Below are positions 40,966 through 61,700 of a stretch of 64,000 nucleotides of DNA, one piece after another. The translations under genes and the position numbers were made by a program. Below the pieces are notes generated by a model. It saw only the letters and a list, made by a program, of their open reading frames with translations, was not told the DNA's origin and made no database searches. Every line of letters starts with the position of its first letter. Position 1 is the first letter of the stretch. This DNA comes from Raillietiella orientalis (lineage: Eukaryota), in NCBI GenBank assembly GCA_036172245.1, contig JAYWIR010000004.1:496001-560000 (forward strand). Reading direction: 5' to 3'.

Positions 40966-41612
40966 TCACGGAGTTTCTACTTTGGGACAATCAGAAGAAA
41001 GATGGAGAGATTCTCGTTTCTGGGGCTGACATTTCCCTGGGCGAACAAACAGGTTTTCGATATCATCTATGGATAGATCCTTGGTCTCTGGCAGCAGAAG
41101 AAGAATAACGGGCACCGTCACTGCGGTCAGGGAAGCGAGGCACCAGAACACCCCGTAATTCGCGATGACGCTCTTCAACGGGTAGTACACCATCAGAGAC
41201 ACAAACCCAGAGAACTGCATGAAGGCGCCTCCCAGTCCGGCGGCCGCGCCCCGAATGCGTAGGGGATATAGCTCGGCGTTCAGCATCCAGGGTATCACTG
41301 TCATTCCCGAGCTACAGGACACCATGTACAGGCTCAGGAGGGCGAACGGAATCCACGACTTGCGTCCGACGTTCCAGCCGCCGACATCGTTCAGGTAGAA
41401 GGCCAGAGCGAGTAAGAACAGGCAAATGGTGGTGAGGGCACAAGACGTAGCGAAGATGGGTTTGCGACCAAAGCGGTTGTTGAGAAAGAGGCTGGCAAGT
41501 CCGATGGTGAGGAACTGCTCGACTCCCAGGATCACGGTGCCGAAGGAGGGATCCACGGAGCTGCGGGAATCCTCCAGGATCTCGTACGAGAAGTAGACGA
41601 CCAGAGAGTAAC
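40966..41612 (-). CDS. Sugar porter (Tret1-like) gene B, terminal exon
   Basis: Acceptor tgtttcag|GT. Motifs RFGRKP, PWMLNAELYPLRIRG and PETKD, then stop TGA. Confidence 0.95.
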
Positions 41613-42644
41613 CTGAAACAGGAGTCTCTCTGGATGCTGAGGAATGGCGAACGTCAGCGATCCCCACTGGGGGCGTCTCTAAGCCCGGCGTATCACTCCA
41701 GAGTTCCCTCGCGAAAAGTGAGTAAACCTTCTGTCTCTCCCCAGCTATTCCCGATTCCCATTCGCTTTCCAGCTTTTCTTTTCTTGTTGCTCTTGATTCT
41801 CCAAACAAAGAACTACAACCTGACCTAACACGAAGCTGATACCTTAATCTGACTCAAACTGACCCATTCTACCAGACATAAACCCGCTATACAGCCAGTC
41901 TAATTCTCCAATCTGACCTGATGTATTCCTCACACACAAAATAGTACTGGGATGATCGACTCTCGACTCCGACAAGCACAGGAGGGAAGAAAGGAAGGAA
42001 GAAAGTTCTTCTTTTCCTTGGAGACAACGCTGTGAATAGAATCTGCTCATCTCAAAAGCAGAGGATGCCACTCAGGCACGCTTGCAGCATTTTGTTGCCT
42101 GCGTGCCGTGAAGATCAGCCGGCCCTCCGCTGCCCTTTTTAGCTTTCCTACGGCGCGCCTGAAGAAGTGCGCAGAAAAAGCCAAGCCATGTCGTAGAACG
42201 AGCCTGAGTTCTTACGCGTCCCCCCCTCGTCCACCGAGAAAAGAGCGCCGCCCTTCCCACTTTTTCGCTCCAGTGATAACTCTGCAAGGCGTTGGTGCTA
42301 GCGAAAATGGCCATCGCCCTGAGCAAGTCCGATGATGGGTCACTGCACCGTCAAGCCGAATAACGCGGACGTCGGCTTCAAGGCCCATATTCTGGGGTCC
42401 AGAGCTCCAAACAGCATGCTCCCCGATCCCACCCGCCCTTCCTGCAGAGCGGGTGTACTCTGCCGGGTGCGGCAACCGCAATAAGTTCTTCCCCTTCCTT
42501 CCTGGAGCAGGGAAGTGCCATAATTCCCTGCATTTCGTCCGCAGCCGTTCCTCGACTCCAGTCGAGCGACGGAAGCAAGAGGAACTGTTCCACACACAGA
42601 ACAAGAGGAAGTGACCCACAAACCAAGAAGCATCTCTTGCATAC

Positions 42645-43268
42645 CTGCCAGCTGAACGGATCCGAGGAGATAGAGGCAGAGAACCACCGGGACGACGTAC
42701 TCTCGACGAAGGAGTTCTCTATAGGAGGTCTTCTGGGTCTGGTAGCTCTTGGCGGTTTTCTGCATGATCTCGAACTCGCCATCCACGGAGCTCGACCTGG
42801 GCCTCAGCCACTGTAGGCTTCTCTTCGCCGCCTCCGTGTTCTCCTCCCCTGCTCTCAGCAGCCAGAGCGGCGACTCTGGAGACGCTAGCAGAAGGAAGAA
42901 CTGGATCAAGGAGACCGCCGCGCTCCCGGCGGCAGTCAGGCGCCAACTCAGGAAGCTCCCCATGAGGTATTCGAGCAGGATGCCTATCGTGATGGCGACC
43001 CCTGGTATAGACGTCAGGAATTTCCTGTTCTTGCAGTCAGACGTCTCCACGATGTACACCCTGCAGCAAGGAGCGAGAATGCCCGAGCAGATGCCGGTGC
43101 ACATCCGGCCGGTGTAGATGAGGTAGATGTTCTGCGCGACGGCAATGATCACCCAGCCCAGCACGAAGGGGATCGTCGTCAGCAGCATGGACTTTCGTCT
43201 GCCGAGTCTCTCTGCTCCCAATCCTCCCATGAGCATGCCCACCGTGGCGCCGATGTTGAACATGCTAC
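42645..43268 (-). CDS. Sugar porter (Tret1-like) gene B, central exon
   Basis: Acceptor ttccag|GT and donor G|GTATGC, 624 nt as in gene A. Motifs ERLGRRK, VYIVE, PESPLW and LQWLR. Confidence 0.95.
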
Positions 43269-45000
43269 CTGGAATCAGAGTTCCCGTTTCAGAAGGTGCC
43301 TTTCTTGGCGCGATTTGGAGGTCAGGGCAGGTCGGATCGGCGTGCCTCGACTTCGCGTCAGATCACGCAAGTATCGAGGTTGTCCTGGGTCAGATTGAAG
43401 CGTGCCGTGTCTCATAGGGGATGCCCCAGGGGCGGCGGATTCTAGTGAACTTTGCGACCGCGCTTCCCTCTGACACGCAGGGAAGAAGGAGGTGGGGGGT
43501 TCTACGTCAGTGTTTGGCCGACCCAAGCCGTGCTTTGAGCCAAGCATCTTAGTCATGCGCGCGCTGTTCTTCCCGTAGGAGAAATGGCAGCGACGCACTA
43601 AGGGGGCAAGGTGCGGAGGACACCGCGCAAGAAGCTGGAATATGCTACCGGAAACGGTCCCTCCGGCAAACTGCTCAGCATATTGAATTTTCCTTCCCTG
43701 TTTCTCCTCTGTTTCACCTCGTCAGGACTTGCCCATCCACCGTTCCTAGCAACCTTACCGCAGACGCTGCCTTCTCTGGAGCCCCACCAGTAAGGGATAT
43801 TTCTGGTGCAAAAGAGTGAGGGAAGAGCTTTCGGAAGATGTATCAGAGGCTGCCGGTGACATCGGAGAAGTGTCGCCGGAGGCACCACTGATGTTTCCAG
43901 GCGAGGACGGCGGCAGGCAGGCGTGGAGGTGGCGGCGCGCGGAGCTTGACGGAGGTCTCCACTGGCCGCTTCAGAAGGTCAGGGGGACGAGGTAAAGATC
44001 CGGGAAGAGACCCCAGAGGGAAGTCACGCTTGGATATGTACGCTTCCGCAACTGACCGCTTCTAGCTGGAGGCTTGTTGCGCGCAGGTGTGCTTGCCCAG
44101 AGTAGGAAGGAGGGGGAAATGCAGCGGAATCATGGGCGGGACATCCCCTCAGGACAGCCAGAAAGGAAGTGTTCCCGGAGGACGTTCTTAGGGAGGAGGA
44201 GTGACGAAGGCGTTACCGGAAATCGGAGGAGGTGGTGAGAAGGATACAGCGCGGCAGGTGGACCTTTGGACCATCCCGAGCCCGGGAGAGTGCGTGCCAG
44301 ATGGAGCTGCCATCCCACAACTGAGACAAGTCCCCGCACAGAAAGAATCCACTACAACCCTTACCCCTTCCCCTTCCCCTTTCCTTCTTTTCTTTCTTCC
44401 CGTAGGGCGAAGAGGGGAAGAAGGCCAGTCGCACGCGGGGGAGCGGTCACGCAGTCATCAATAAGTCAAAGCGCCATTTCTGACGGGGCCACTAATGAGC
44501 AAGCTGGAAGGAGGAACATCCTGTGCTCCTTCGCTGGAGGGAAGGTTCGGAACTTCCTCAGTCGTGCCGGATCCCAGTGCCGGGCGCTGCAGCGGGAACG
44601 TCGGGGATGCGAGCAGCGGAGGCACCGACGGAGAAAGAGAGTTCGGGCTGCCGCCAGCGCTCGGAATGATGCCCTTCGAAAGGCGTCGTCCCAGGGCCTC
44701 CGGTCGAGCAGCGGGGCCTTCGCGGGAAGGGTTCAGTCACCCTTCGGTTGGGCGGTGGGGGAGGCAGCTTTTTCGCCGAGGCGGCGCTTCAAGGGCTGAG
44801 GCGACCCGCTGCTGCTCTGTTGCGGCTGCGGTCCCAAGATGGCGGCGGCGGGTGGGAATCCCCAGGGAGTTTCGCGGGAAAGCCTCGCCTGTCCACCGCT
44901 CCATCTGCAAGCGGAAATCCGGCAGGGTGGGCTCGGGAACGGTGGTCATCGGGCAGAGCGCCCCGTCGCGAAGCCCCCTCCTCCGGAAGCCCTCGCTCAC

Positions 45001-45136
45001 CGATGAGTGACGCCTGGTTGTCGGTGAGGTCCTTGAACGCGGCTTCCTTCTTCATGGAGGGAATGGCCAGGGAGGTGTACCCGTAGCAGGAGCCGAATGC
45101 CATTTGACCCAGGGACGCCGTAATCGCCACCAGCCA
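45001..45136 (-). CDS. Sugar porter (Tret1-like) gene B, TM1 exon
   Basis: Acceptor tttccag| after a (CCT)n tract; WLVAITASLGQMAFGSCYGYTSLAIPSM...SLIG; donor G|GTGAGC. Aligns without gaps to the gene A TM1 exon. Confidence 0.9.
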
Positions 45137-45203
45137 CTGGAAATGGAGAGGAGGAGGAGGAGGAGGTGACGCAGGACATCAGGGGCCCGAGGGGTCTCAG
45201 TAC

Positions 45204-45287
45204 CTGGGTCCAGTCCTTGCAGAAGAGAATCTTGCGGGAAGGCTTGCCACCCTCTTCGGCAGCGGCGGCGGGATGGACATGGTTCCC
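45204..45287 (-). CDS. Sugar porter gene B, probable N-terminal coding exon
   Basis: Acceptor ttctcacttccag| and donor CAG|GTACTG. The 84-nt exon (GNHVHPAAAAEEGGKPSRKILFCKDWTQ) is in frame with the next exon across a 67-nt intron. The exon carrying the start codon was not identified. Confidence 0.5.
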
Positions 45288-46700
45288 CTGGAAGTGAGAA
45301 AAGATCTCCGGAAGGTATCCGGAAAAACGGGGGAGGGAGAGGAATCCTGATCTTCCCGAGTTTCCTCGGGGACGTCAAGAAAGAGGAGAGGGGGAAGGAA
45401 CTCCAGAAATGGAAATGAGCTTTGCCTATCGGGATATCGGCCGCAGCGAGCCCCGGTCCTCATGCAGGGAAAGCAGCGCATTGCCGGGTCAGCCGCTGCT
45501 GCCCCCAAGCGGCCGTGCGCTGAGGTGGGCGCTGCGTGCGGGGACTCGAAGACAGAGCCCTCTGGAATTGACGCCTCCGGGGTGATGGGGGGATGAAGGA
45601 GCCTCTGGACCCTCCTTTCTCCCTATCCGAGTCTTTCGCCCTTCTCGTGACCCCTAAGGCCCACAGGCGACTCTTCTCTGCTCGAGGAGAGCCGGAAGCT
45701 GGTCGAGGGCTTTCCCGGGAGCTAGTCAAGGGTTTGCGGGATGCTGGCAATTGTCCTGTCTCCCCTGAGAGGCAACAGGGGGGATCGCTCGCACCCACCC
45801 TCCTGCCCGCCCATTTTGTTCCGGAAACGTCGTTCCTTGCGGTGCGCAGTCCGCGGAAGGGCGCGCGGCCCACTCGCGACACCCAGCCCTTCCCTCCGAT
45901 TGCTCTTCCGGCGAGAACACCACACCACTAGCACGCACCTTCTTGTTCCTCCTGGCCGCAGCAGGAAGGGTAATCGATCCCCTTCCGGTGCCCTCCAACG
46001 CAGCCTCCGACCCCTCCTGCATCCGAACGGCGTCTGCGCCGGGACCGTCCGGAAGAATCGCCAGCACCGCGGTGTGTTTGGAGCAGAGCGAGACTGCAGA
46101 CTGCAAGGACGGGGAGAGGACCACTGCCTGCTCACCCAGAGACCGAGCGGTCTGCAGAGAGATTCCACGGGAGAGAGGGCGAACCGAGTGGAGACGGCGC
46201 GATAAGCTGCGGCGGGCGAGGAGGCACGCAAGGAGGGAAGCGGGGGGCACGGGAGAGAAGGGACGTGAAGGCGATGACGACAACGACGACGACTCCCGTC
46301 GCGCGCGCAAGAGGACGCTGCCGCTTTTCCCGCCCTCCGCGGCTACTGCCCCCGTCGACTCTTCCCGCCGCCGCTGCCGATAGCCTCCGGCGCTCCTTTC
46401 TGCGCGCACCCCGTTCCTCCCTTTTCTCCCCCCCCCCCCCACGCCGGCATGCTGGTCGCCTGAGGAAAAGGAGCTCTGCGATCCCATCGCACTTCAACTT
46501 TGCGCGGGCCGACTTTTCCCCTCCTACAGCCCGAGAGGGATACCTGGCTCTCTACGGGGAACTCCTTCCTCCCAGCGCCCCTCCGACGTGATCGAGGGGG
46601 TGCCCCTCGCTGGATAGTTGAAGAGTTCTGGGGAGCCGCTCCTGACCACGTGGAGGAAGTTTTAGCAGTGGACGTGGGCGTCCGGAGAGAAGCCGAGACT

Positions 46701-46706
46701 TTTATT
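46701..46706 (-). promoter_or_regulatory. Candidate polyadenylation signal of transporter gene A
   Basis: AATAAA on the - strand, ~207 nt downstream of the stop. Confidence 0.45.
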
Positions 46707-46912
46707 TCTTTCAGAGTGGGGGCACGTGCGCGCCGGGTGCCGCTGCCGTCGTGAGTTTGGGACCTCCCAAAGCCCCTGGGACGTGAATAACTTAAATAGC
46801 ACGAGGCAGGAGGCGGGGCCAGGCATGAGGGAGGGGAGGGGGAGAGAGAGAAAGGGAGCGACAGGTGAGTAGAGTTCGGGCGGCAAGATAGCTGCGGCCG
46901 GCTCTGGGCGCC

Positions 46913-47571
46913 TCACTTGGCGGTGATGACCTCAGGGTCGTTACCGCCGGAGAACGCATCGTTGGAGTAAGCAGACACTTCCTTGGGTTTGCCCTTCTTG
47001 GTGCCCATCATGAGCTCGATCTCTTCAAGGGTGGTACCCTTCGTCTCCGGGACGACGTACATGGTGAAAGGGACAACGACTGCTGTCATCAGGCTGAAGA
47101 ACCAGAACGCCCCGTAGATCCCGATTCGGTCGCTGAGGGGGAAGTAGACCAACAGGACGAGGAATCCGCTCAGCATCATGACGGAGCCCCCGAACCCTGC
47201 GGCGATTGCGCGGATCCGGAACGGGTACAGCTCCGCGTTGAGGATCCAGGGCACGGACACCAACCCGGGGGTGGAAGCCACGCTGTAGAGGATCAGGATG
47301 GCCACGGGCATCCAGGATATGGCGGACATGTCCCTGTCGAGGACGTCCTTCAGGTAGGAGTAGAAGCCGAAGAGGAACAGCGAGGCGGACGTGATGGCGC
47401 AGGAGATGGCTAGGACCGGCTTGCGCCCACAGCGGTCGTAGAGGAACTTGCTTCCGGAGGCGGCGCTGATGAACTGGACAGCGCCCAGAAGAACCGTGGA
47501 CATGCCCGGATCGATGCTGCTCTCGGCTGCGACCAGGAGCTCGTAGGAAAAGTAGACGATCACTCCATAGC
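46913..47571 (-). CDS. Sugar porter (Tret1-like) gene A, terminal exon
   Basis: Acceptor ttccccag|GC. Motifs DRCGRKP, PWILNAELYPFRIR and PETKGTTLEEIE, then stop TGA. The three exons join in frame to 488 aa when read from ATG 59941. Confidence 0.95.
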
Positions 47572-49942
47572 CTGGGGAAAAGTGGAAGTGAGTCGTCGCT
47601 GGTCTGGCTCCCCTCCTGTCGCGGGGCGCAGCTGGGCTCGCAAGCGAGCACCTAACATTCCCTCTTTCCCTCCTTGCTTGTCCCGTTCTGATACCACCAC
47701 CCCCGTTTCACTCCTGGGAGGTCGCCGTCGGTCGGCCAAACCTTCACACGCAATTGCCTTTGGCCCCTAACGAGTCAGTGCCACCTCCCGAGAGGTGGAA
47801 CGTTCCTTCGAGACAGCGGAGGCGCCGTGAGACATCCACCAGCTGGGACGGTGGCTGAGGCGCGGCTGAGCCTACGGGAGACGGGGCAAAAGACAGACGT
47901 TCCATCCCGCCGGAGTCCAAGCAAGCAGACTGAATGCATCGCAGGGCAGAAGGCATGGGATCCGTCGGTGGACCTCAGCAAGGAATCACTTTCGAGCATC
48001 CCGAGGGCGCCAGAGCCCCTTTTCTCAGTAGAGGCAGGCTGGGGCGATCCCACTGTCTCCTTGTCCGAGCGCCTCTCTGCGCACATGAGAACAGCTGGTG
48101 TCGCGGTCGCCATTTTCCCTTTTCTTTCACCGTGCTGCACCCATAGTCGTTCTTGGTCGCTGTTTCGACCCTTCCTCCAGGAGCTTTTTCGCGGCTTCCG
48201 TGATGCTTGGACCGTTTACAGAATTCGCCGGGACCCCCTGTTAGATCCTGGTATTTTGAGAACAGAGAAGACGCTGCTCCAGGGTGCTTGAACATAAACA
48301 TTACGGTCAGGCCGGCATCACCGGCCTGATCAGGTCACATAAAATCCCAGGTCATGCAAAGCAATCATTTGTGGCACTTGAAGAGAGGGAGCCTGCTGGA
48401 TCGGTCGGCAAGGGTCAGGTTTTCGGTAGTCGAAGGTGGACAGCAGCTGGGACAGTTCCTGAGAAGGTCCACTCGGAGGATGCTGCCGAAAATGTGAGAA
48501 AGGAAATCCTCCACCGAGACTGTCTCAGTAGCTTGGTGGGTGTGATGACCGCCGTGCCTAAGGACCAAGATGCACCTCCAAGGTGTTCAAAGATGCGGTG
48601 TCGCTCTTGAGAGAAACGTAGCGGCTGGAGGCTCATCTTCTCACCTTCACCCCTCCATTCCGATGCATCAGTCCGGCTGCATGGTTTGCATCCTCCGGAA
48701 AGATACACGCTCCTTGCAGTCGGCTTCCAGACTAACCTTTGAGCTCATCTCCCTCTCCTGCGTGCTCTCTTTCAGATCACGAGGCGCCAAGTCTACGTGC
48801 ACTCCAGAATGCGCAAGGTCCGCTCCGTCGAGAACCAGGCATTCCGTAAGAAGTTGCAACGGAGGTTGGGTAGTGGGGAGTGAGTACGGATGGCCTTGAG
48901 AGCTGCAACTGGTCGGTCAAAAGCTTGGGGGCGTGTCGGCCGCCTCGTGGACGCATCAAAGTGACCAGAAAAGATTCATCGCCACCAGCTTCACCAGAAG
49001 ACGTCTGCTGCACGTCTCATGCATATGCTGTAGCAAGGAAGGGGAGCGACCGCTAGCCCATCTCCTCAACACTTCCCCGCTTAGCCTGCCTGCGCGTTCA
49101 GAGGCGCATTATCTCTGCTTTCGCTTATCTCTGCCTCCTGCCACTCTTGCATTCTGCTCAAATTGAATCACGCGATGAGGAGAGGCCAGTATATCCGTGA
49201 CCCGGGTCAGCAAGCACATCAGAGAGTATAAAGGATAACCGGTGGGTTTGCGACGAAGGGCACAGTTCGGTTCTCCGGCGTGACCACTTCGCCCCAGCAC
49301 AAGAGCAGCTCCAGGAGCACCCGCGCTCCGCAATCAAGGAGGCCTCCCCAGTGCCCATCCTCACGCGTAGACCTTGATCGCCTGTTTAAAAGCTTCGAAC
49401 GGGAAAGTAGGAGCCTATCTCCGTTTTGTTTCTCATTCCAGATGAGGCCCCTCACAGGCGTCAGCATTTAATGCGAACTACCGGCTCGGCGCCTATGGAC
49501 AAACATCCTCAGCCGTTCGCAGTCCGACTGCCATCGCGGATTTACCGTTCGCGCCTTGACGCAGATTGGCGGAATTGCCTTGACCTTGGATTCACGTCAT
49601 GGACCGAACTGCACGTGAAGATATTGAGGATGTGGGTAACCACAGCTCTTACTGACCGCGCCATTTTACGAGAGAGACTTCTCTCACCGGATGATAGGTG
49701 CACACGCGGAGACGCTGAACCTGGCGTGCACCGTTTCCCGTTACAATGAACATCGACATCGGCACACCACGAAATACAGTATTCCGTAAACAGGATAGGG
49801 ACAACGGGGCTGATAAGGAAACTTTACCGTAAGTTTGCCAGAGACCCGTGAACGCGGTTTTTTACTCTTTTTTCCACTTTTTTCTGTTTCAGAGAGAACA
49901 GAAATCACATTGGTTGCTTAGCAAGGTGATGCCGGTCTGAAC

Positions 49943-50788
49943 CTCTAAGCCGGCGGTGGGCAACTCGTTCGTCCCCGCAGAGCGGTCGAAACACTTCGCA
50001 ACTCTCACCAATGGCGACACTCACGGCTTGCATCAGTTTGCTGGCCCTCCTTACGTCATCCCCATTAGCCAATGACGATGCAACCTCTCACGCTCCCGCT
50101 GACGTAATTGTTCTTCCAACTTCTCTTCCAGAAGGCTCGCCAGAGTGGCTCCGGCAAGCGCCGTCCCGCTGCGGAAGCAGCCGCCTACGCGCGAACTCTC
50201 GAGGGGTCGCCGGACAGACGGCGAGATCCATTCGAGATTGCGAGCGGGAGCTTTTGAATCTGTCACATGCAAAAATCCTCACGTCAATTATCGGCACCAT
50301 GTGAATAACGACATGGAAAGACACTCGAGATCACGGACTTGTCTTGGAGCAAGCGAAACGAGCGCCATCGTAAACCAAAGCTGGAAACTGAACATTCAAT
50401 CATGAACGCACATTATCTCCGGACGCATGGATTCCCTTGGAAATGTTTGGCTGCACAGGAATGCAGGCATGCGCGTGCGATGTTTGGATCCGGATCGGTT
50501 TCCTCATCACGCGACGTTCCCGATCAAGAGAGATATCCCTGTCTGCCGGGACCGCGTTCTCCGAATCAGCGCAAATAGGCACCGTGCCGAAACCAGGGCG
50601 TACGAGGTTTGGAATGGGCGCTTGCACGACAGGAGGACTACCGTGTGGGAGTACCCCTTTGCTTGTTTGTTTTTGCCACCCGTCCGGATCAGGGTGTCTT
50701 CGATGAAGAAGGGGCTGCCATCCTACGAAGGCTGGGAGACACTGCTCGCCCTGGATGCTGGAGGGCGGGGGAACGTTTGGAACGTGGG
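49943..50788 (+). repeat. Inverted repeat, left arm (846 bp)
   Basis: Reverse complement of 55232-56077. ORF translations are identical in several frames; one C/T difference was seen near 50774. Confidence 0.97.
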
Positions 50789-51299
50789 TTGGGCCCACCT
50801 CTTCTTTAAACCAGGTGCTCATGTAGAATGACCAAGTGCCTTCCTGTGTCCTGCTCTGGCCAATTTTGATGTTATGTGAGAAACACACTGCAGAGTGCCA
50901 CTACAGAAGTGCTAAAGAGATCAATTGACAGCGGAGCATTCTATTTTTCTAGGTTCCCGATCGTTATGGGATCAGGAGGTCTTATTCGTGTGCAGCTAAT
51001 GTTGGTGGACCGGTGCAGAAGATTTCTCGAATCCCTGTTCATCTTCTATGTAGGTCAACCCCCGCATAGGCTACACTCACTTTCGTCATGAGATCCCAGC
51101 TGCTTTCTCCACGGTGGAAGCAGCGTAATACAAAATTCCACATCATTTCTTGCCAGCCTTCTCTTCCGGAACGTGACCCCTGGGCACTTCATCCTGAGTC
51201 TCAACTCTTCTTCCTGGAAACTCAGCTTGCAGAGTCGTCCTTTTGCGTTCTTCGACTTCTTGGGTTCCAATTGAATTTTGCGGCTTCTTCCTGGAGTTC

Positions 51300-53150
51300 A
51301 TTCCTACTCGAGGAGGTCTCCTTGGGGATATCTTCCGCCTCTTTACCATTCTCACATTCTCTCCGAAAAACCAACACGTGCACATCAGTCGCCTCTTCCG
51401 GAAAACACTTCACTCTGGTTCCTTAATCTGCCGCTCCTCCGTTATTCATCAATGGGGATGACAAGCCATCCACCGGGTATCCCAGCGATGGCTCAGCTTG
51501 CGAGCGCGTCTCCTCCCCAGAAGGGAGATCAGCCCCGTAGTTGTTAATGTTGACGGTCAGCATCATCGTCAGGCTGTTTTGAGCAGATTTCTTTCACTGT
51601 GATTTAACAGAAACATCCTCTCCCTGCAATGGACTTTCTGAGGTTTCTTGTCGACTCGGCGTCCTCAAACTTCTGATTTCCGTAATGAACGCCTTCCCTG
51701 GAAACACCGCCCTTAGCAACAGGGAGTTTCTCATTTTGGGGCGGGAGAGCTTGCTGAGTGCATGCAGTTTTCCTTCATGAGGAAACTCTCGTCCTTGGAG
51801 AAGACAGTCGAGAGCTCTCTCCAGCACGCCTCCTCGTGCTGCAGGACCGGACCCGTTGCTTTTCCATGCACGGAATAGTCCTCGTTCGTTTCGGAACGGA
51901 GGTCATTCTCGTTCGAGTGAACAGAGTTGCTCACTCAAACCGAGAACACTTGGTGAGTGGATCGAATCGTTGTCTAGGTGACTTCATGAACAGCCGAATC
52001 CAGAACTTCCACAGTGACGCTTATCGAAGTATCTGATTGAGCATGGACCAAAGCTTGATAAAGTGAGGGACTTTTGAAGTCTCGTGCTCGAAATTCATCG
52101 TCTGGTCCAGGATGGATGACAGAGATGAACTTGCAGAGAAGCAAAACCGACGCGGGAATAGGGGATCGAGCTCCCCGACTTCCATAGCTGGGTCAATCGA
52201 GTTGTGAAAATGAGATGAGAGAACAACGCACAGCAGCGGGGAGGGAACACAAAGAAAGGGATCCAGGCAATCGTTGGAACTCTTACGGAGGATATTGTAG
52301 AGCAGGGGTGGTAAACGTGGAAATCGCGAGCTGATGCTCGTGCCAGCATCAGAAACAGAACACCCGACTCTGGGAGAGAAGAATTCGTGCATCCAAGTCG
52401 GTCGAATCGAATCCACCGCTAAAAGAATGAGCTCCATCTAAAACGGTCACGTCAAATGCCCAATTCCAATCAAATTTTCCTCTGCCTCGACAGTGAGGAA
52501 CAGGGAAATGTTGCTATAGTAACCGGACAATATAAATTCATTCCCGAATCTCCTCGATTCTTTCGGCATCTGCAGCGGGACACGAGTGGCTCGCTCGGTT
52601 CTTCGAGAAAAGCAGGACGGGATGTTCTGCAGGAAACTCTTGAGCGAAATCGGCAACACGCGAGCGCTCGACGTCTCTGGTGGAGGAGCTGCGGGTAAGA
52701 AGGGTGATGCTAAACGGTGAGCCATGCAAAATGCTGCTTTTCACTCAGTACGGCACTGATGAAAGCAAGGTGGTTGGCGGAGACGCAATCTCAACTTGTT
52801 GGGAAGCCTCGTCAAGAATCTTTCGCCACTGCTTTGAGAGTTTGGCTATCCCTACCACTTTCATCTGTTACGGAGCTGCGATCTTTTCAGGAGTGCGTGC
52901 GTTCTGAATCTTCACGCGTGAAGCTTTGCTGAATTCGTTTTCGTCTGAAGAAATGCAGCTCAGAGCAAATGAAAAAGACAGGTCGCAGACGATTCGAACT
53001 GTTTTCTACGACCGATGTGAGGCGGCAACACCTTAGCAACAAGAATACCCGAGTGCCAAGTTTCGTGTGGATCTTCCTCGACAAGAAAGCAGAACGATGA
53101 GAGTTTCGGGACCGGATGCATGATGGCGCCTCGACCTGTCTCCGAGGAGG
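51300..53150 (-). pseudogene. Decayed IR-like gene in intron 2 of transporter A
   Basis: FFSP...FPRLPPLLYNIL (~52380-52290), LWSMLNQ...IRLF (M2-M3, ~52050-51990) and EEACW...ESFLMKE (S2, ~51835-51775). Confidence 0.4.
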
Positions 53151-53233
53151 AAAAAACGGACTGAGAGGTGCCGCCGTGTCAGAAAGCATGAAAGACGGAA
53201 TCTGGAGGAAGCCCACGGCCCAGGTCCACTTAC

Positions 53234-53857
53234 CAGAGAGGTGAATTGATCCCATGAGAAACAAAACGATAAACAGGGGCTTGATGTACTTATGTTGGAA
53301 CAGGGCTTTGATACCGTGTGGTTGAGAAAGGATGTTCCTGACGTTCGTTTCCATTGCTTGATATTCGTTCTGGATGTTAAAGCGCTTCCCTCTTAGCCAC
53401 TGCAAACTCTTTTTTGCTTTTTCTTGATTCTGTTCTCCCGCTTTCAGAAACCACACTGGAGACTCGGGAATTGCAATCACTAAGAAGAACATCGCTAAAG
53501 GTACAGCCGCATTGCAAGCTGCTAATATTCGCCAGCTCACGAAATTTCCAATGAAATAGCAGAGCAGGATCCCGATCGTGATACTGATCCCCGGGATGGA
53601 AGCAAGGAATCCTCTGAGCTCCGCTTGCGCCACCTCTACAATGTACACGCGGCAGGCTGGAGTGACAACTCCAGCCAAGATGCCTTTGAAGAAACGTCCG
53701 GAGTAAACCATCTCCACGTTCTGCGCCAGTGCGATCGTTGCCCAGCTCAACACGAGGGGGATTCCCGAAAAAAACAGGGTCCTCTTCCTTCCGAATTTCT
53801 CCGAACACATCCCTCCGATTATCGTGCCGACTATGGCGCCAACATTGAACAAGCTTC
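53234..53857 (-). CDS. Sugar porter (Tret1-like) gene A, central exon (TM2-TM7)
   Basis: Acceptor ttcttccag|GA and donor G|GTAAGT, 624 nt, phase 1-1. Motifs EKFGRKR, GR...G, VYIVE...RG, PESPVW and L.WLRG. Confidence 0.95.
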
Positions 53858-53899
53858 CTGGAAGAATAAACCGTCAGGGGGCATCCCAGCGCACCCCTT

Positions 53900-56009
53900 C
53901 GCATTTGCAGGTGCTGCACGCGCGCCAGCGCACGCGCAGGTCCCCTCTCGGGAGCGACGCTTCTCTGGAGGCTTCGAAAAAGACGAGACCGCTGCTTCCG
54001 AGCGATCGGGTTCCAGAGGGAAGGAGCCGCTCCGGCTCCCGGAGCGGCAGCCGGGTGACTTCGTTGGCGGGCCACGAGAGCGCAAGCCAAGCAGTGAGCA
54101 TCTCAGCTGACCTGGAACGAGGAGCACGCAAACCGGGAGTGCTCGCGAATTTATTATTCCGGATGTCGGCGAAACGAAAAGAAACGGGATGTCACCCGCT
54201 GGAACTGCAGCATCCGCCGCTGCGCCTGCATTGTTGACGTATCGATCCTAACTGTGGCGCCAACGCATCCGCCATGGCTGCAGTAGGGGGGAAGACGTTT
54301 GGCGAGAGCAAGCGCTTCGCAGACAAGGCAGAGAGAGCATCTTCTTGGATGGCAACCATCTGCGAGAAGTTCAAGCGTCACGCGGGGCAGAGGGAACATC
54401 GCTGGAAGGCCGCGAGTGGCAGATGGTTGACGAAAGCGGGAATGGAAGTCTGGTGGTGGGCTTCGTAGTCTGAGGCAGCCGTGGTTCCTCCCTCTGTGTT
54501 CCGATTTCGGGGGTGTTTGATCTCAGAGACAGGGGAAAATCCCAGAAAGGTGGTCAAGCTGGTCAGTCCAAGAGTTTCCGGAAGCAGGAAAATCCGCAAA
54601 GATTGGAATCTGAGATCACTCAAGGGGAGTCAGATGCTTCCGAGAGTGAACTGAGCAGCCGGTAAGAAATCCGTAGATCCTCAAGGCGCAGCCACACGCG
54701 GAGGAACCTGGCTCTCGGAACTCGATTTCGAATCACCGGTAATAAGAAGGGACAGCAGGAGTAGTTGGTGAAAGAAGGAAGAAAGGAGGAAAACTGCGCT
54801 GTCAACGTCCTGGAGGCAGAAGGGCAGAAATTGCTCTCGAGGGAAAACAGAGCCTCCGGGGATTACGCATGGAGCCCAACAAATGCAAGCAGTCGTTTCT
54901 AAGGCATCAAACATACCTATTGTGAATTCAGAAGAAGATGGAAAGCCTCATTCGAACCCTTCCACATCCGCACCACCCTTTCTTGCAAAACTCCAGACAC
55001 GGAAGCTTCATCTCCTCTTTGACATGCGATTACGAGTTTCGCGTCGCTCGAAGGAATCAGGATTGCAGCTTCCTAAGCTCTTATAAAACAGAAACGAGGC
55101 ACTGCTGTGATCCCTGTCCCATCGTTCCAAATAATGAGGAACTTCTTGGGAAACGAGGAAGATTTTCATGTCGGTATTCCTCCACTTCGTGAACGATGCA
55201 TCGATCTGCCCCATAGAAAAGCGGCGGGCAGCCCACGTTCCAAACATTCCCCCGCCCTCCAGCATCCAGGGCGAGCAGTGTCTCCCAGCCTTCGTAGGAT
55301 GGCAGCCCCTTCTTCATCGAAGACACCCTGATCCGGACGGGTGGCAAAAACAAACAAGCAAAGGGGTACTCCCACACGGTAGTCCTCCTGTCGTGCAAGC
55401 GCCCATTCCAAACCTCGTACGCCCTGGTTTCGGCACGGTGCCTATTTGCGCTGATTCGGAGAACGCGGTCCCGGCAGACAGGGATATCTCTCTTGATCGG
55501 GAACGTCGCGTGATGAGGAAACCGATCCGGATCCAAACATCGCACGCGCATGCCTGCATTCCTGTGCAGCCAAACATTTCCAAGGGAATCCATGCGTCCG
55601 GAGATAATGTGCGTTCATGATTGAATGTTCAGTTTCCAGCTTTGGTTTACGATGGCGCTCGTTTCGCTTGCTCCAAGACAAGTCCGTGATCTCGAGTGTC
55701 TTTCCATGTCGTTATTCACATGGTGCCGATAATTGACGTGAGGATTTTTGCATGTGACAGATTCAAAAGCTCCCGCTCGCAATCTCGAATGGATCTCGCC
55801 GTCTGTCCGGCGACCCCTCGAGAGTTCGCGCGTAGGCGGCTGCTTCCGCAGCGGGACGGCGCTTGCCGGAGCCACTCTGGCGAGCCTTCTGGAAGAGAAG
55901 TTGGAAGAACAATTACGTCAGCGGGAGCGTGAGAGGTTGCATCGTCATTGGCTAATGGGGATGACGTAAGGAGGGCCAGCAAACTGATGCAAGCCGTGAG
56001 TGTCGCCAT
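53900..56009 (-). pseudogene. Decayed ionotropic receptor (IR)-like gene in intron 1 of transporter A
   Basis: Signal-peptide-like start MATLTACISLLALLTSS (ATG 56009). Then, in order across frameshifts: WNGR..TVWEYPF, YEGWETLL, GGGMFG...GQIDASF (S1), FPREQFLPF (pre-M1), and SLRIFLL-x8-LTT-x4-S.VS-x4-PR (exact IR M3 spacing, ~54602-54507). The 3' boundary is approximate. Confidence 0.7.
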
Positions 56010-56077
56010 TGGTGAGAGTTGCGAAGTGTTTCGACCGCTCTGCGGGGACGAACGAGTTGCCCACCGCCGGCTTAGAG
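55232..56077 (-). repeat. Inverted repeat, right arm (846 bp)
   Basis: Reverse complement of 49943-50788. Confidence 0.97.
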
Positions 56078-56149
56078 AGGCTGCTTCAGTTGCCATCCGT
56101 GGATTCATGTGAATTTGTTTCTCTATCCTTCCTTCCAGTCTTTTCATTT

Positions 56150-57600
56150 GACTCTCCTGGCGGCGCTACCTGCGAACCGCCTTGTTGGTCTTCAAGTGGA
56201 AACGATTGAGGCTGCGATGATGGCCATTCTTTCTTATTCTATCATTTTGATTGTTGTGTGATCGCATTCTAATGGATCATCCGGATGGGTAAGTGAAATC
56301 ACAAGAGATCTGCGAAGTACCAACAAGGAACAGCTTTACCCCATCCTGCATTTCAGTCAAGAGAGCTCCACATCAAGCAGCACCCTGCGTGATCATGAAA
56401 CTGAGGCAGTTTTAAACGTTTCGGGCCTCTTCAAGCAGCGAAATGGTGCGAAGTGCCCCTGTCCTCAAGCTGCAGAAAAATAAAGCTCGATTTCCTCACT
56501 GGTTGACTTTTCGGAAACTGCGACCCTCGTACTTCAACTCCCAGAAGACAGCCTATCTTTTTCTACTAGCTCGCATCCCTAAACGCTGAACAAAGATGTA
56601 GGGATACTGGATCCGACTTGGCTCTGGGAGATAGATGGCTTCATGGTACTTGGGCAATTTGTTGCTTTCATCCACAAGAGTCGGAGTCACAACAGGCGGT
56701 GAATCCGAAGACAGGGATAAAAGCGATCTTATGCCTCGATGCTGGCTGACGCGTTCCAAAAGGTGCCTTGTAGGTGGGGACAGGCGATGACCCCCTTGCG
56801 CGCGAAGCAATGAATCCTCGCAACAGCCGCGGAACAAGTCGACGAATTGCGGCGCTTTTTGCCATGTCAAAAAAGTGCATACGGCCGCTCCAGATGCACT
56901 CGTCATCGGATAATCCAACCCAAGAAAACTCATTTTCTGTTACCATCGACCCATGGTGGATGTGCGTACGCATGCACAGCGTGCTGCATTACAACGGTTT
57001 CATTCAGACTCGGATCAGGACGAGTCTGAATGAAAAATCGAGCAAACATCAAAGGAAAACCCCGCGAAACCATCTGATGTGTACGCTCCGTACTTGGGTA
57101 ACAAATTTCTCCCATCCATGGCTGCTGGATCTTCTCACTGTGCGGGTTCGTACGTGATTTGCGTACCACTCACGAGGACCCACTCGATCAACATATTAAG
57201 ATCACCAGCTTCCGGAGCATGAGATCTCCATGCGTATCATCGACGCACATGTGAGAAAGCCTTTGCGGTCTCAACAGCCCATCCTTCCACGAGTCAAGAA
57301 AAATGTGTTCGTGGCGGTGAAGGGAAGGGAAAGAGAAAGGAACGAAGTAACAAACTGATCTGCTTCTGGAAGACGGCCTTCTTTCCCTGCACTTCTCCTA
57401 ACCACCCTTACATAGGATGTAACCTTGAAATGTTGACCAACCAATGTGCATTAAGAAGATGATGCAAGACTGACTTTCCATTAAATGGGTGCTGAATTGC
57501 GAGCTCTGATTATGGATGTTGCGGAGTAAGGAAATCCGAGCGTCGGCGTAGATATCAGCTAAAGATGCCGTGTGTTCAGGAGAGGCAGCGAGTTACGTCC
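56150..57600 (-). pseudogene. Possible decayed IR-like gene in intron 1 of transporter A
   Basis: LDYPMT....VCTFLT...PQFVDLFRG (S1 end/pre-M1, ~56915-56825). Confidence 0.35.
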
Positions 57601-59757
57601 CTTTCATTCATTCGAATCGCGATTTGGGGTGTTGCCTTTTCACTTTCCCCCACCCCACCCTTTCTATCATAAAAAAAAAAAAACGTTCGAATGATGGGTG
57701 GCCGGAGTAGAGAACCGGAGAAATTTGGATGTGCAACGCTTGCATGAGGGTCCTCCACTTCGTCACGAAAGGGCTCTGGAATGCCGAATGTGCGCTAGAG
57801 CCCTCTCGCGAAAAGGGATCCAATGCAGCCGAAAATGGGGGGTCTTGACCCTGAAGCTTTCTCATTGTCTCCACCAGTCGCGCCGCCTTTTGGTGTCTGC
57901 CCTTTGGCACTGAGTAAACGAGCAATCCGCGCGGCACAGGGAGACTCGGCGAGGAGGAGTTCCCGCCTGCTCACAGGAAGACGATGTCCGAGTTCAAATT
58001 CGAGATCCGGGACGAGAAGAGACGTCTATGGGTGGAGGAGGAAGGGATCAGGGGCAGGAGAGACGGCGGCACCAGCTGCCTTCTGACTCCGATCTCTCTT
58101 GGACATGCGCTTGGGGGAAAAGGGGTTGAAGGGGCAGGGCAGGGGTAGGGAGCAAACTCATTGCTCGACGGCGAGGAAGAGGGACTGAAGTGGACTGTGG
58201 CGCTCCGTTCGAAGGGACGCCGACATCCAACGTGCGGCTCTGGGAGATGGTCTAGCATACGTTTTCGGTCCGTCCTAAGGACTTCGCTTGTCTCCAGTCA
58301 CAGCAAGGTTTCCGAGGATGAGAAGGAGCTTAAGGAAGTTCCTCCTTAGGTGGAGGAAACTCTGCTTCCCGTCTTCCTCTGCAGACTCCGACAGCCGTTC
58401 CTTGGCTCCCCGACAGAGCGGCAGCAGCGAGGTCGCGTGCTACCACCTCGCTGCAGAAACTCGGAGGCTCATCGGGATGGGGCGGAGTGGAGTGCCCCCC
58501 CCCTCTTTAACCACCCGACCTAAGAGGACCGCAGTGGAAGGAGGCTGAAGATAACTCGTCGGAGAATGTGGTTCCAGATGCTTCGAGAAAACGGAGAACA
58601 AGGATCTAGCGGGTGCCGCAAAAGGAACCAAATACCGGGTTCGGGAGGAGCAAGGCTTTCTTCTCGCCCTTAGGGAATCCTGGAGGACCGGTTTCTCGAG
58701 AATGGAGCCCTTCGATGACACAAGATATAGAGGAGCAAGAAGGTGGGAGTGTTCGAATAAGGGAACCTATGGATGCTCGTCATGGTGATCACAGTTCTTC
58801 GACGGGATCCTCACGGATCATTCTTTTGAGACCTTCTCCGCACACCGCATGCAGCCTGAGTGTGGAGAACCTCGCCAACTAGACGTAGGACTTTCGTCCC
58901 AAACTGACAGTGACAGAAAAATGACGATTTTTGGTTCTCCAGGAGTCAGCTGTGCAGAGTACGCAGTTCAGGACCACAATGTCGTTTTAGGGGAAGCATG
59001 GATGCTGCAGGAAGCCAGCTCTTTCAAGAGTCTGCTCTGAGGGACTGCGCAGGCATCGGAAAACGCAACTTCGCTTCTTCGTCCGACGTCATCGCTGCCT
59101 CCGCATTAAACAGGCCTCGGCTTCGGGACAGCGGCTTAGGGTGAGGCAGAGCAGCAGCTGAAGGAATCAACGCCGGGGAACAACCTCGCAAGTGAGAGGC
59201 TGCAAGGAGCATGTCCACGCACGTGAAGAGTAAAGACTCTCCCCTACTCTTCAGCCCAAGATCAGGGCGAAAGGAAAGCGGCGAGCCTGCCCTTCGACGG
59301 CAAGGCTTCGTAAACGTAACGAGCGGGTGCGTAGCACCATCTCCGTGAATCCGTTGAAGTGCGAGTTTTTTGGCAACTTGTGCTCAGTGCACGTGGTCTA
59401 CAAACTGGAATGTCATCCACGCTTTTTGACCTCTGCCACGCGATGATTTTTGCTGATGGGCCCCGTTTCACCCCTAGGATTCACGACCCCTTTTCCTTTT
59501 CTTTTCTTCGGGAAAAACCGAACCTGAGGGAGGAGACTGAGAGAAAGGTTGAAAGAGACAGCGACTCTTCCCAGGAGGGCTATCTCTTTGAAGGGACACA
59601 GGAGACTGTGGCAGATTCAGTGTGTGGGTGCAGAATTGCAGGTCCGGAAAAGAGACCAGAAAGAGAAAAAGAGGAGATAAATAGAAGTTCAGGGGAGGGA
59701 AGGACTCTGGTCCCCTAGCTTGCAAGAACCCAAGCACCAGTAATGCTCCACACTTGC

Positions 59758-59941
59758 CGATCAGCGAGATTTCTGTCTCTCCGATCTTCGAGAAGTCCTT
59801 CTCGCTCTTCATCGACGGCAGGGCGAGGGCCGTGTAAGCGTAGCAGGTCCCAATGCTCAGCTGCGCAAGAGATGCTACGAAGGTGGCAAAATACTGGAAC
59901 ATACGTGATGTTTTAGCAAAGAACGTTCCCACCACATGCAT
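59758..59941 (-). CDS. Sugar porter (Tret1-like) gene A, TM1 exon
   Basis: MHVVG...FQYFATFVASLAQLSIGTCYAYTALALPSM...ISLIG, ending at a phase-1 GC donor (G|GCAAGT). The exon may instead start at acceptor ttccag|59893, which would make it 136 nt like the paralogous exon. Confidence 0.85.
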
Positions 59942-60399
59942 TCTCTTCCTACTCGCACGCTCCCCCCCCCATGTGCTCCAGCCTAATCACCTGAGCTGCA
60001 GCACTTGCACAGCTTTCCTCAGATGCTTCTGATTTCTCCCAGAGCGCTCAACAAGCTCGGGAGTGTCGCTTCTCCTCTTGGAACTTAAAATTATCCTCCC
60101 CTTCTTCCCCCCTCATGCATTCGCCATTATATGCCTCATGCGGTTGCTTTGCAACCGGCCTCCTACTGACCTGACGTGAGCGCTGTGCTTTCGAGTCAAC
60201 TGCCGCATGACTCAGAGAATCCGTTAGATATACCATTTAATCCAGACTTCTGATCACAGACTCAACTTTGAAATTCATGCACTGCAGTATGAGACAGTGT
60301 CACTGGGTCCGATGGTGCAAAAGGGCGTATAAATCATTGCGATCACTGTGGCGAAGGGAAAACAGATTTGGTCCATTTATATCTCTTCGCGATGCTTTG

Positions 60400-61700
60400 C
60401 ATATCAGCGTTGCAAATTGAATTGATGATCTTTAGCAAAGGAGCGTGCCATTCGAGCGATAAGATGATTTATTCGAATTTGCGTGTTAACTGCGTATCAT
60501 CTTTTGGTTTCTCGCGCCCAATTAACGTCTGGTTTTCCCCAGAGCCCTAGTGCCAGGGTTAGAATCCGGAATCCAGATTTTCCTTCAGATCACGACGAAG
60601 ATTGGTTGAGGGAAAGCCTCATAGAGAATTCTTAACTAACTTCAACGAACAGTCAGGTCAACGAACAGTCACGAAGCATGACGCATGGCTTCTTCCTCAC
60701 AGGTGTAGTATCCTGCTGGTTACTGACGGAGATGAATGCATTCACCAGCCATAGACTCCTTGAGCCTCGCACAGCTGCCCAGGCCCAAGCATGCCTGCGA
60801 CAACCCCTGAATGGCTCTCGAGAACTCTCAACTAGGGAAGCAGATGGTCTTTCCGCCGACATTTGCCAGAAACTTGGAAACGTCAGTCGCTGAAGTGAAG
60901 GGCTACTTGTTGGGCAATTAGAGAACCGAAGATGTGATTCGTTCGGTCTTCTCGGCCTGTTGGCTAAGATCAAAGTGCCTCCCTCAAGAGACCTGCTCGT
61001 TTCACACCTTCTGGACATCTTCCTCGCGCAATACCCACTAATGAAGTAGGACGCTTGGACTCGGGAATAAAACACACCTTTTATCGTCTGTTCGCTGAAG
61101 AAGTATCCAAGGTCTTTCTCTCCTTGCGAACTCTGATCTGCGTCGATAGACTCGGTCAGCTTCTCTGATCTGTAAAAGCAACTCAGTTCTCTTTGCAAAG
61201 GGGTCCCACTTACTGTTGATTAGAAAAGAAAAGTGCAGTTTTCCTAAGATTCATTCTGATTCAAGGAATCCACTTTTGCCTTGCAGCTCATGAACGATTG
61301 TGGGGGATACGGAGACCACCCTGCACTCGGATGCCAGTGCGAAAACTGATAGCACGGGTGAAGAGGGGAAAAAAAATACCTGAGAAGTACCAGCCCATTT
61401 CTCAGAAGAACGCCCTGATCAGTAAGGGTATGACGCCTTACTTGGTGGACTTGGGAATGAACACATTCAGCCAATTATGAGAGCAATCAGATATTCTGTG
61501 TCCTTATGTTTCATATGATCAGCGATTTGTAATGATAAGCAAATATCATGAGTTGCCTACAAACAGGCATATCTCAGGAGTACAAGGAATGGCAAATGCC
61601 ATCCTGAACTTTTGCCTTGCTTTCATTTGACCAGATTTTCCAATCATGGCTAGATTTCGAGGGGTCTAAAAGAGAGGACATGGCGTGATAAAGGTTTTCC
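60400..61700 (-). pseudogene. Possible decayed IR-like gene
   Basis: LLRYFFSPL (~61380) and SSQG...SEQTIKGVF...YFISGYCARKMS (M2-M3-like, ~61130-61015). Confidence 0.4.

Follow-up and report, generated by a model that had tools for sequence, protein, structure and literature searches.

An 846-bp inverted repeat around exon 2 of a sugar transporter gene of Raillietiella orientalis, a candidate locus for circular RNA formation and exon skipping

Two tandem transporter genes and an inverted repeat

The sequence analyzed here, referred to as the window, is a 64-kb stretch of Raillietiella orientalis DNA that is free of N. It carries gene A, a Tret1-like MFS sugar transporter gene on the minus strand, whose three exons give a single open frame of 488 aa when spliced. 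A paralogue, gene B, lies in tandem to it at 41017-45142 on the same strand. The features that concern us are listed below, with a slash marking each splice boundary here and in the text.

59758..59941, minus strand: exon 1 of A, 184 nt, with the ATG at 59941-59939, ending in phase 1
53858..59757, minus strand: intron 1 of A, 5900 nt, GC-AG with the donor ATCG/GCAAGT, holding the right arm
55232..56077: right repeat arm, 846 nt, within intron 1 of A and lying upstream in the pre-mRNA
53234..53857, minus strand: exon 2 of A, 624 nt, phase 1-1, TM2-TM6 region
47572..53233, minus strand: intron 2 of A, 5662 nt, GTAAGT...CAG, holding the left arm
49943..50788: left repeat arm, 846 nt, within intron 2 of A and lying downstream in the pre-mRNA read from the minus strand
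46913..47571, minus strand: exon 3 of A, 659 nt including the TGA
42645..43268, minus strand: homologous exon of B, 624 nt, phase 1-1, the control without arms
50008..50107: CCAAT motifs and CRE-like motifs (TGACGTAA and TTACGTCA), clustered toward the left arm's outer end

The Pfam search matched exon 2 of A to Sugar_tr (PF00083) at profile positions 53-263 (E 1.5e-37, 130 bits) and exon 3 at positions 268-451 (E 2.5e-26, 93 bits), while exon 1 by itself gave no Pfam match. Exons 2 and 3 together span positions 53-451 of the 452 in the profile, and protein A scored above the curated cut-off of 22.3 across the 12-TM core. Its translation contains the motifs GRKR, PESP, WLRGK and PETKG. The nearest protein found for A showed only 39% identity. 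The splice sites bounding exon 2 were read from the sequence as an acceptor ...TTATTCTTCCAG/GA (region CTGAC...TTTATTCTTCCAG/G) and a donor CTG/GTAAGT, and both look functional. Judged by its sequence, exon 2 is a central, indispensable core exon. The gene model also agreed with the first-pass annotation that this exon is symmetric (624 nt, phase 1-1), such that skipping it would keep the frame.

Genes A and B showed 46-47% identity in each of the three exons (47% at the amino acid level over 51 aa for exon 1, and 46% between exon 2 of A and the homologous exon of B). The introns beside the 624-nt exon of B measure 1732 and 1032 nt. They hold no arms like those of A, as had been claimed before, and the best inverted pairs in B were only 21 and 16 nt long.

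A base-by-base comparison of the two arms (49943-50788 and 55232-56077) showed that 845 of 846 positions were complementary, with the sole mismatch at 50774 versus 55246, and identity collapsed beyond position 846. The earlier description of the repeat as 846 bp with one difference was therefore exact, and the gene model bore out its placement in both introns flanking exon 2. The repeat search in a 10-kb region reported the inverted pair as 49943-50805 and 55215-56077 (863 nt, 99%). Across the full 64-kb window this pair was the only repeat of at least 60 nt, and low-stringency blastn (word 7) found no third copy in the window, even a diverged one. A repeat of such length and identity cannot be attributed to chance in 64 kb. 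The edges of the arms were sharp. Similarity between the inner flanks was no better than that of shuffles, and the outer flanks gave one weak 20-nt match whose significance was lost in longer windows. The sharp edges and the divergence of 1 in 846 are consistent with a young duplication.

The arms gave no match to Rfam, to tRNA or to E. coli genomes and plasmids. No Pfam family passed its curated cut-off in the 89 intronic ORFs or in the three arm ORFs, and the longest arm ORF (166 aa) had no phmmer match among 1.84 billion representatives. Coding GC3 periodicity was absent from the arms. By these searches, neither arm looks like a transposon, a coding sequence, a member of a known RNA family or contaminating bacterial DNA.

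Pairing of the arms in the pre-mRNA

If gene A is transcribed at all, both arms are contained in one pre-mRNA. The single difference between the arms becomes a U·G wobble in the sense RNA, so all 846 positions can pair (845 Watson-Crick pairs and one U·G). The global minimum-free-energy fold of the 6335-nt sense RNA contained all 846 arm-to-arm pairs, in register, which lends thermodynamic support to the duplex of about 850 bp proposed in the first-pass annotation. The energy of the duplex was -1901 kcal/mol, compared with -301 and -307 kcal/mol for the separate arms. Rival pairing within gene A was limited to 11 other inverted pairs of merely 16-23 nt.

Pairing between the arms dominated the predicted fold and closed a 4.4-kb loop that contains exon 2 and both its splice sites. 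Between the right arm and the exon-2 acceptor there are 1374 nt of intron 1, and between the exon-2 donor and the left arm 2445 nt of intron 2, with 3.1 kb of transcription between the acceptor and the start of the downstream arm. Each flanking intron of exon 2 carries complementary sequence (the arms in introns 1 and 2), and in the predicted fold pairing across the exon outcompeted pairing within the introns.

Predicted splicing outcome and related systems

Inverted repeats on both sides of an exon are known to promote its circularisation and its skipping, and the mechanism is not new, being well established for intronic repeats around circularising exons. We put the probability at about 0.55 that 846 bp of non-coding sequence were recently duplicated in inverted orientation within gene A and that the repeat diverts some transcripts to a circle or to skipping. 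The predicted splicing effect is regarded as a by-product of the recent duplication and not as an evolved device.

Such an outcome would require intron 1, with its weaker GC donor, to be still unspliced once the downstream arm has been transcribed. The stem would then juxtapose the donor and acceptor of exon 2, and likewise the donor of exon 1 and the acceptor of exon 3. A fraction of transcripts would be diverted to a 624-nt circle of exon 2, to an in-frame mRNA joining exon 1 to exon 3, or to both. The shortened mRNA would encode a protein of 280 aa without TM2-6, presumably inactive, so that functional transporter output would drop. The 846-bp dsRNA would also be a substrate for ADAR or Dicer. 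Since the arms are distant from the exon and the downstream arm begins 3.1 kb after the acceptor, intron 1 may often be removed before the stem forms.

The predicted junction of the exon-2 circle (...TCT G/GA AGC...) had no stop in frame, and the stop-free frame of the circle contained five in-frame AUGs. The endless ORF noted earlier was thus present. It was not special, however, because a stop-free circle comes automatically with a coding exon that is symmetric in phase and divisible by 3 in length, and the 624-nt counterpart in the armless gene B shares the property.

We compared the locus with published systems. Mouse Sry is circularised via flanking inverted repeats; there, as at gene A, consensus splice sites and long near-perfect inverted repeats flank one exon, and the stem-loop juxtaposes donor and acceptor, as is predicted at gene A (Capel 1993; Dubin 1995; PMC4201285, PMC4288412). 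However, the repeats of Sry exceed 15 kb and lie around an entire gene that has one exon and is transcribed from a distal promoter. The arms of A are 846 nt long and are separated by 1.4 and 2.4 kb from the coding exon they enclose, which is the internal one of three, and the circle at A is a prediction. In the fly laccase2 gene, exon 2 circularises co-transcriptionally, driven by repeats of about 400 nt (Kramer et al. 2015, PMC4617980). Like gene A (introns of 5.9 and 5.7 kb), laccase2 has an invertebrate exon 2 between unusually long introns (more than 9 kb), and its inverted intronic repeats of a few hundred nucleotides are described as necessary for back-splicing and as lineage-specific, not conserved (PMC4617980). 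Those repeats are DNAREP1_DM transposons, 69-75% identical and close to the exon (PMC4617980), while the arms of A share 99.9% identity, lie farther from the exon and bear no recognisable mark of a transposon.

In C. elegans zip-2, reverse-complementary matches between both flanking introns promote back-splicing as well as skipping, the same pair of outcomes that is predicted at gene A (Cao 2021, PMC8330042). The zip-2 match is 13 nt long, conserved across nematodes and deletion-tested (PMC8330042), whereas that of A is 846 nt long and apparently young, and its outcome is a prediction. Nearly equal to the arms of A in repeat length and perfection are artificial circRNA cassettes, in which perfect flanking repeats of about 800 nt enclose a single exon and suffice for circularisation of ciRS-7 (Hansen 2013, cited in PMC4201285; PMC4288412). 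The cassettes are engineered and their repeats adjoin the splice sites (PMC4201285), in contrast to the natural locus of A with its kilobase spacers between arms and splice sites.

Because the geometry of the locus resembles that of the tested cases of mouse Sry, fly laccase2 and worm zip-2, it is reasonable to predict both circularisation and skipping of exon 2. Back-splicing, skipping and editing at gene A are all predicted by analogy with these cases, and everything past the DNA structure is still prediction. The locus is a real and tidy candidate of a known kind. If A is expressed, it would offer an unusually clean natural test of back-splicing by complementary sequences in a poorly sampled animal lineage, having one perfect, competitor-free 846-bp stem, one symmetric coding exon and an armless tandem paralogue as internal control. 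It could also show a new duplication altering the splicing output of a gene at once, which bears on how circRNA loci arise.

Alternative origins and consequences

An origin by duplication rather than from a mobile element is the best reading of the negative evidence in this one 64-kb window. Assemblers tend to err at near-perfect repeats, and one arm could in principle be a mis-joined or duplicated segment. Against this, the window has no N, and the 4.4 kb between the arms is unique sequence in which exon 2 stands as it should in order, orientation and phase, in agreement with B. Artefacts from reads that fold back usually appear as palindromes with no spacer, at the ends of contigs. The arms have no match to E. 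coli genomes (including any insertion sequences there) or plasmids, and the two copies differ at one base and were therefore resolved as separate loci, which together make an artefact very unlikely. We also tried a single foldback or long-TIR element spanning 49943-56077 and rejected it: the outer flanks (...GTCTGAAC and AGGCTGCT...) were not duplicated, the interior ORFs held no Pfam domain, and the interior holds exon 2 of the host gene, placed correctly as to order, strand and phase. Two insertions of an uncharacterised non-autonomous element in opposite orientation, for example by local hopping, would explain the identical boundaries and near identity of the copies, and inverted transposon pairs are described as the usual source of circularising repeats in flies and mammals (PMC4617980, PMC4201285). 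This origin is nonetheless unlikely, as reading the ends of both copies revealed no terminal inverted repeats, no duplicated target site, no tail of poly(A) or of simple repeats, and no Helitron-type TC...CTRR ends. The window had no third copy and was otherwise without repeats, and no transposase or RT domain appeared in the 89 + 150 ORFs scanned. An origin from two insertions would leave the RNA-level consequences unchanged.

As to consequence, the repeat may be real and yet functionally silent, a neutral recent duplication in a gene that is spliced normally. Intron 1 could be removed co-transcriptionally, the stem could be dissolved by helicases or ADAR, or the gene could be barely expressed. 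The 3.1 kb of transcription between acceptor and downstream arm would fit this. So would the even identity of A to B across three exons and the intact 488-aa frame, which argue that exon 2 is still under constraint. We regard silence as possible though doubtful: the donor of intron 1 is GC, which is weaker than GT, and the arm stem has no competitor in gene A. The stem is also far longer and more perfect than the repeats described as sufficient, which measured 30-40 nt, about 400 nt and about 800 nt (PMC4201285, PMC4617980). Repeat-flanked exons are nevertheless often not circular in the published cases: Kramer et al. describe numerous such fly exons that do not circularise (PMC4617980), and Liang and Wilusz describe repeats that fail to support circularisation and stronger, very stable hairpins that can inhibit it (PMC4201285). 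ADAR is reported to antagonise repeat stems (PMC5168830).

Alternatively, the locus might chiefly be a hairpin-RNA source of endo-siRNAs, or a hyper-edited dsRNA, that feeds back on A in the nucleus. Drosophila hpRNA loci and nematode long hairpins are diced into endo-siRNAs, and the predicted perfect intramolecular duplex of 846 bp supplies the structural half of the hpRNA definition. However, the loop at A is 4.4 kb where known hpRNAs have short loops, and siRNAs would match only intronic sequence of A, with no other target in the window; this role is distinctly improbable. Still less credible is a main effect at the DNA level, in which recombination between the arms inverts the 4.4-kb exon-2 segment as a recurrent null or an on/off switch and gene conversion keeps the arms identical. 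Arms of 846 bp with 99.9% identity, inverted and 4.4 kb apart, would suit such recombination; in humans, comparable inverted repeats mediate inversions at F8 (intron 22) and at FLNA/EMD, and gene conversion homogenises the arms of palindromes. Yet the assembly shows only the functional orientation, and the flanks (inner ones like shuffles, one weak 20-nt outer match) lack the decay expected around an old conversion-maintained repeat. No programmed switch of this sort is known in animals.

The young duplication with a splicing by-product thus stays our preferred reading. Alternatively, the arms might be older, kept identical by gene conversion and recruited as a regulator of A once A and B had duplicated. 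The stem would then toggle the pre-mRNA between functional mRNA and a circle that could be translated endlessly, and the CCAAT/CRE-rich outer modules of the arms might also drive convergent transcription across the exon; we give this very little credence.

The CCAAT/CRE-like cluster at 50008-50107 was the densest of its type in the 64-kb window, and TGACGTAA occurred twice against 0.01 expected per 846 nt. The motifs were picked after viewing the sequence, so the cluster is only a lead. Its mirror image in the right arm lies at 55913-56012, and the CCAAT/CRE-rich modules sit at the outer parts of both arms.

The arms, transporter A and paralogue B

The two arms of the inverted repeat were compared base by base. 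Positions 49943-50788 (left arm, intron 2 of A) matched the reverse complement of 55232-56077 (right arm, intron 1 of A) at 845/846 positions, with one mismatch (50774 vs 55246), so the length of 846 bp and the single difference given in the first-pass annotation are exact. Identity between the arms dropped away at once beyond position 846. The repeat search returned a single inverted pair in 48-58 kb (49943-50805 / 55215-56077), and this pair was the sole direct or inverted repeat of at least 60 nt in the 64-kb window. Low-stringency blastn (word size 7) found no third copy of the arm in the 64-kb window, diverged copies included, and an exact search with an arm 25-mer gave 0 matches among metagenome contigs. 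With one repeat pair of at least 60 nt, the window is strikingly poor in repeats and transposons.

The arms bracket exon 2 of transporter A, a Tret1-like MFS sugar transporter gene, which has a tandem copy, paralogue B.

Features of transporter A and paralogue B
59941-59758, minus strand: exon 1 of A, 184 nt (from sequence and script)
between exons 1 and 2, minus strand: intron 1 of A, 5900 nt, GC-AG
53234-53857, minus strand: exon 2 of A, 624 nt, phase 1-1; Pfam Sugar_tr, profile 53-263, E 1.5e-37
between exons 2 and 3, minus strand: intron 2 of A, 5662 nt
47571-46913, minus strand: exon 3 of A, 659 nt; Pfam Sugar_tr, profile 268-451, E 2.5e-26
41017-45142, minus strand: paralogue B, tandem copy, 46-47% identical to A in each of three exons
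43268-42645, minus strand: homologous exon of B, 624 nt, phase 1-1

The coding total of A (184 + 624 + 659 = 1467 nt) gave a single open frame of 488 aa, and exon 2 was symmetric in the spliced model, as had been proposed. With slashes marking the splice junctions, the exon-2 acceptor reads TTATTCTTCCAG/GA, the exon-2 donor CTG/GTAAGT and the exon-3 acceptor TTTTCCCCAG/GC, while the intron-1 donor is a GC donor (ATCG/GCAAGT; 59752-59757, minus strand). A search of 5.8 billion proteins gave 3 proteins at E <=1e-10 among 2111 candidates. The best relative was only 39% identical, which indicates sparse sampling of the lineage. In metagenome contigs, 117 pattern stretches matched the exon-2 protein, with 0 relatives among them.

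The introns of B measured 1732 and 1032 nt, the first with a GT donor. This donor (ATCG/GTGAGC, 44995-45000) is canonical and lies in the same codon phase as the GC donor of A. The best inverted pairs in B were 21 and 16 nt, and B therefore stands as the gene without comparable arms that the earlier reading had taken it to be. We also observed an additional upstream coding exon in B (45137-45210, minus strand), with donor ...ACCCAG/GTACTG followed by acceptor TTTCCAG/TGG at 45137. The translation start of A appears to fall inside the exon homologous to the second exon of B, and upstream of the A start codon lies a short out-of-frame ATG (59973).

Predicted pairing of the arms and its effect on splicing

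In the sense (minus-strand) pre-mRNA the lone difference between the arms becomes a U·G wobble, so that 846/846 positions are able to pair; in a plus-strand transcript the same difference is a C·A mismatch. The computed energy of the full arm duplex was -1901 kcal/mol; the single arms, folded by themselves, came to -301 and -307 kcal/mol. The global minimum-energy fold of a 6335-nt sense RNA (the arm-to-arm span plus 100 nt on each side) held 846/846 arm-to-arm pairs in the expected register, and the duplex of ~850 bp put forward from the sequence is thus supported in computed folding. Gene A held 11 further inverted pairs, with lengths of 16-23 nt and complementarity of 74-94%. Within the 4443-nt loop closed by the stem lie 1374 nt of intron 1, the whole of exon 2 and 2445 nt of intron 2; outside the stem, the distances are 3680 nt to the exon-1 donor and 2371 nt to the exon-3 acceptor.

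This layout agrees with experimentally tested cases. According to passages of PMC4201285 (Liang and Wilusz 2014), the circularising exon of mouse Sry is flanked by inverted repeats of >15 kb and deletion of either one abolishes the circle, while for ciRS-7 ~800 nt of perfect artificial repeats are enough and 30-40 nt can suffice. For fly laccase2 exon 2, with introns of >9 kb, passages of PMC4617980 (Kramer et al. 2015) describe inverted DNAREP1_DM repeats as required, and long repeats of ~400 nt as acting co-transcriptionally.

Altered splicing of A is a sound prediction from this known mechanism. The downstream arm begins 3.1 kb past the exon-2 acceptor, and some A pre-mRNAs may keep intron 1 until then; the GC donor may delay its removal. 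Pre-mRNAs still holding intron 1 should form the arm-to-arm stem, with a 624-nt circle of exon 2, an in-frame mRNA joining exon 1 to exon 3, or both as the predicted products. The predicted back-splice would join 53234 to 53857 and read ...CTCTCTG/GAAGCTTG..., and the predicted exon 1-3 mRNA would encode a 280-aa protein without TM2-6.

An endless open reading frame had been ascribed to the circle. The gene frame of the exon-2 circle indeed contained 0 stops and 5 in-frame AUGs (11 and 2 stops in the other frames), and part of PMC4639774 describes circles with an infinite ORF as translatable in rolling fashion. As a distinctive feature the claim did not hold, since the armless 624-nt exon of B, drawn as a circle, likewise had 0 stops (7 Met). 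A stop-free circle is the automatic outcome for any coding exon that is phase-symmetric and has a length divisible by three; being present in B as well, it adds nothing specific to the A locus.

Identity and origin of the arms

We searched the arms and their surroundings for known elements. Pfam gave no match for three arm ORFs and 0 above the curated cut-off for 89 ORFs of at least 70 aa across both introns of A, where two sub-threshold matches were seen (CUB-like, 18.4 bits, cut-off 32; HA2_C, 15.4 bits, cut-off 21.3). Among ORFs of at least 110 aa outside gene A, 150/189 were scanned and none matched at E <=1e-4. No transposase or RT domain was found in these 89 intronic and 150/189 outside ORFs. 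The longest arm ORF (166 aa) gave 0 phmmer hits among 1.84 billion representatives, in a search confined to this single ORF, which lies outside the outer half of the arm. Real exons showed GC3 of 0.59-0.86 and GC2 near 0.42; arm ORFs, with GC2 of 0.49-0.64 and GC3 of 0.49-0.65, lacked the marked GC3 excess of the exons and showed no GC3 periodicity of the coding kind. The arm was rejected as coding sequence. Rfam gave 0 matches at E <=0.1 over 46000-61000 and the window contained 0 tRNAs, which disfavoured a structured RNA. No blastn match to E. coli genomes or plasmids was obtained, which excludes a cloning-host insertion sequence, and the arm was likewise rejected as vector.

Read by eye, the arm ends lacked terminal inverted repeats within the arm, a poly(A) tail and Helitron-type termini, and neither the single arms nor the 6.1-kb unit as a whole was flanked by a target-site duplication. 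A single long-TIR transposon or integrated ITR-bearing virus was rejected, as the interior is host exon 2 in the right order, strand and phase and element genes are absent. Exon 2 is collinear with its two neighbouring exons, as also seen in B, which makes a by-product of inversion with staggered breaks unlikely. Both arms had sharp edges, and the inner flanks aligned at shuffle level. The outer flanks shared one 20-nt match at equal offset, reached by 1/500 shuffles with 60-nt, 16/500 with 150-nt and 97/500 with 400-nt windows; its significance is confined to the shortest window tested. The arms differ by one substitution in 846 bp and are most simply read as non-coding DNA that was recently duplicated, in inverted orientation, within the gene.

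We put at roughly 0.55 the probability of a genuine repeat of recent origin that, in the expressed gene, alters splicing to a measurable degree. A functionally silent repeat is rather unlikely but deserves weight: in the passages cited, some repeats fail and a stronger hairpin can inhibit circularisation (PMC4201285), and numerous repeat-flanked fly exons fail to circularise (PMC4617980). A role as siRNA or editing substrate is considerably more doubtful. Part of a review describes ADAR1 as an editor and antagonist of such stems (PMC5168830). Our literature search on siRNAs and inverted repeats in introns yielded nothing of use.

The arms could also descend from a low-copy mobile element, an unlikely origin given the ends and domains described here, yet one compatible with the RNA consequences. 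An assembly artefact we consider very improbable; the count of N in the window is 0. That the near-identical arms act as a substrate for DNA inversion is the most improbable of these readings.

The outer ~100 nt of each arm (50008-50107; mirror 55913-56012) carry the densest CCAAT and CRE-like cluster of the window. There TGACGTAA/TTACGTCA was seen twice vs 0.01 expected per 846 nt, for motifs picked after inspection. This block looks promoter- or enhancer-like.

Other genes and composition of the window

Besides the two transporters, the sole recognisable gene in the window was a GPCR, whose presence identifies the window as animal.

Further features of the window
19300-20457, plus strand: rhodopsin-type GPCR, intronless; 7tm_1, E 1.1e-34
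2-1792, minus strand: long open frame, 597 aa, continues off the window; no Pfam match
8608-10017, minus strand: long open frame, 470 aa; no Pfam match

In the Atlas, the neighbours of the GPCR were assorted animal GPCR clusters of mixed phyla, and a clear orthologue was not found. The two long frames sit in a part of the window with 60-66% GC and may be lineage-specific genes or merely stop-poor GC-rich sequence. CpG observed/expected was ~0.5-1.3, with general depletion absent. GC3 was uneven across the exons of A (0.69 in exon 1, 0.59 in exon 2 and 0.86 in exon 3) and was 0.80 and 0.73 in exons of B. The differences among the A exons track a composition step near 48 kb, from ~63% to ~50% GC.
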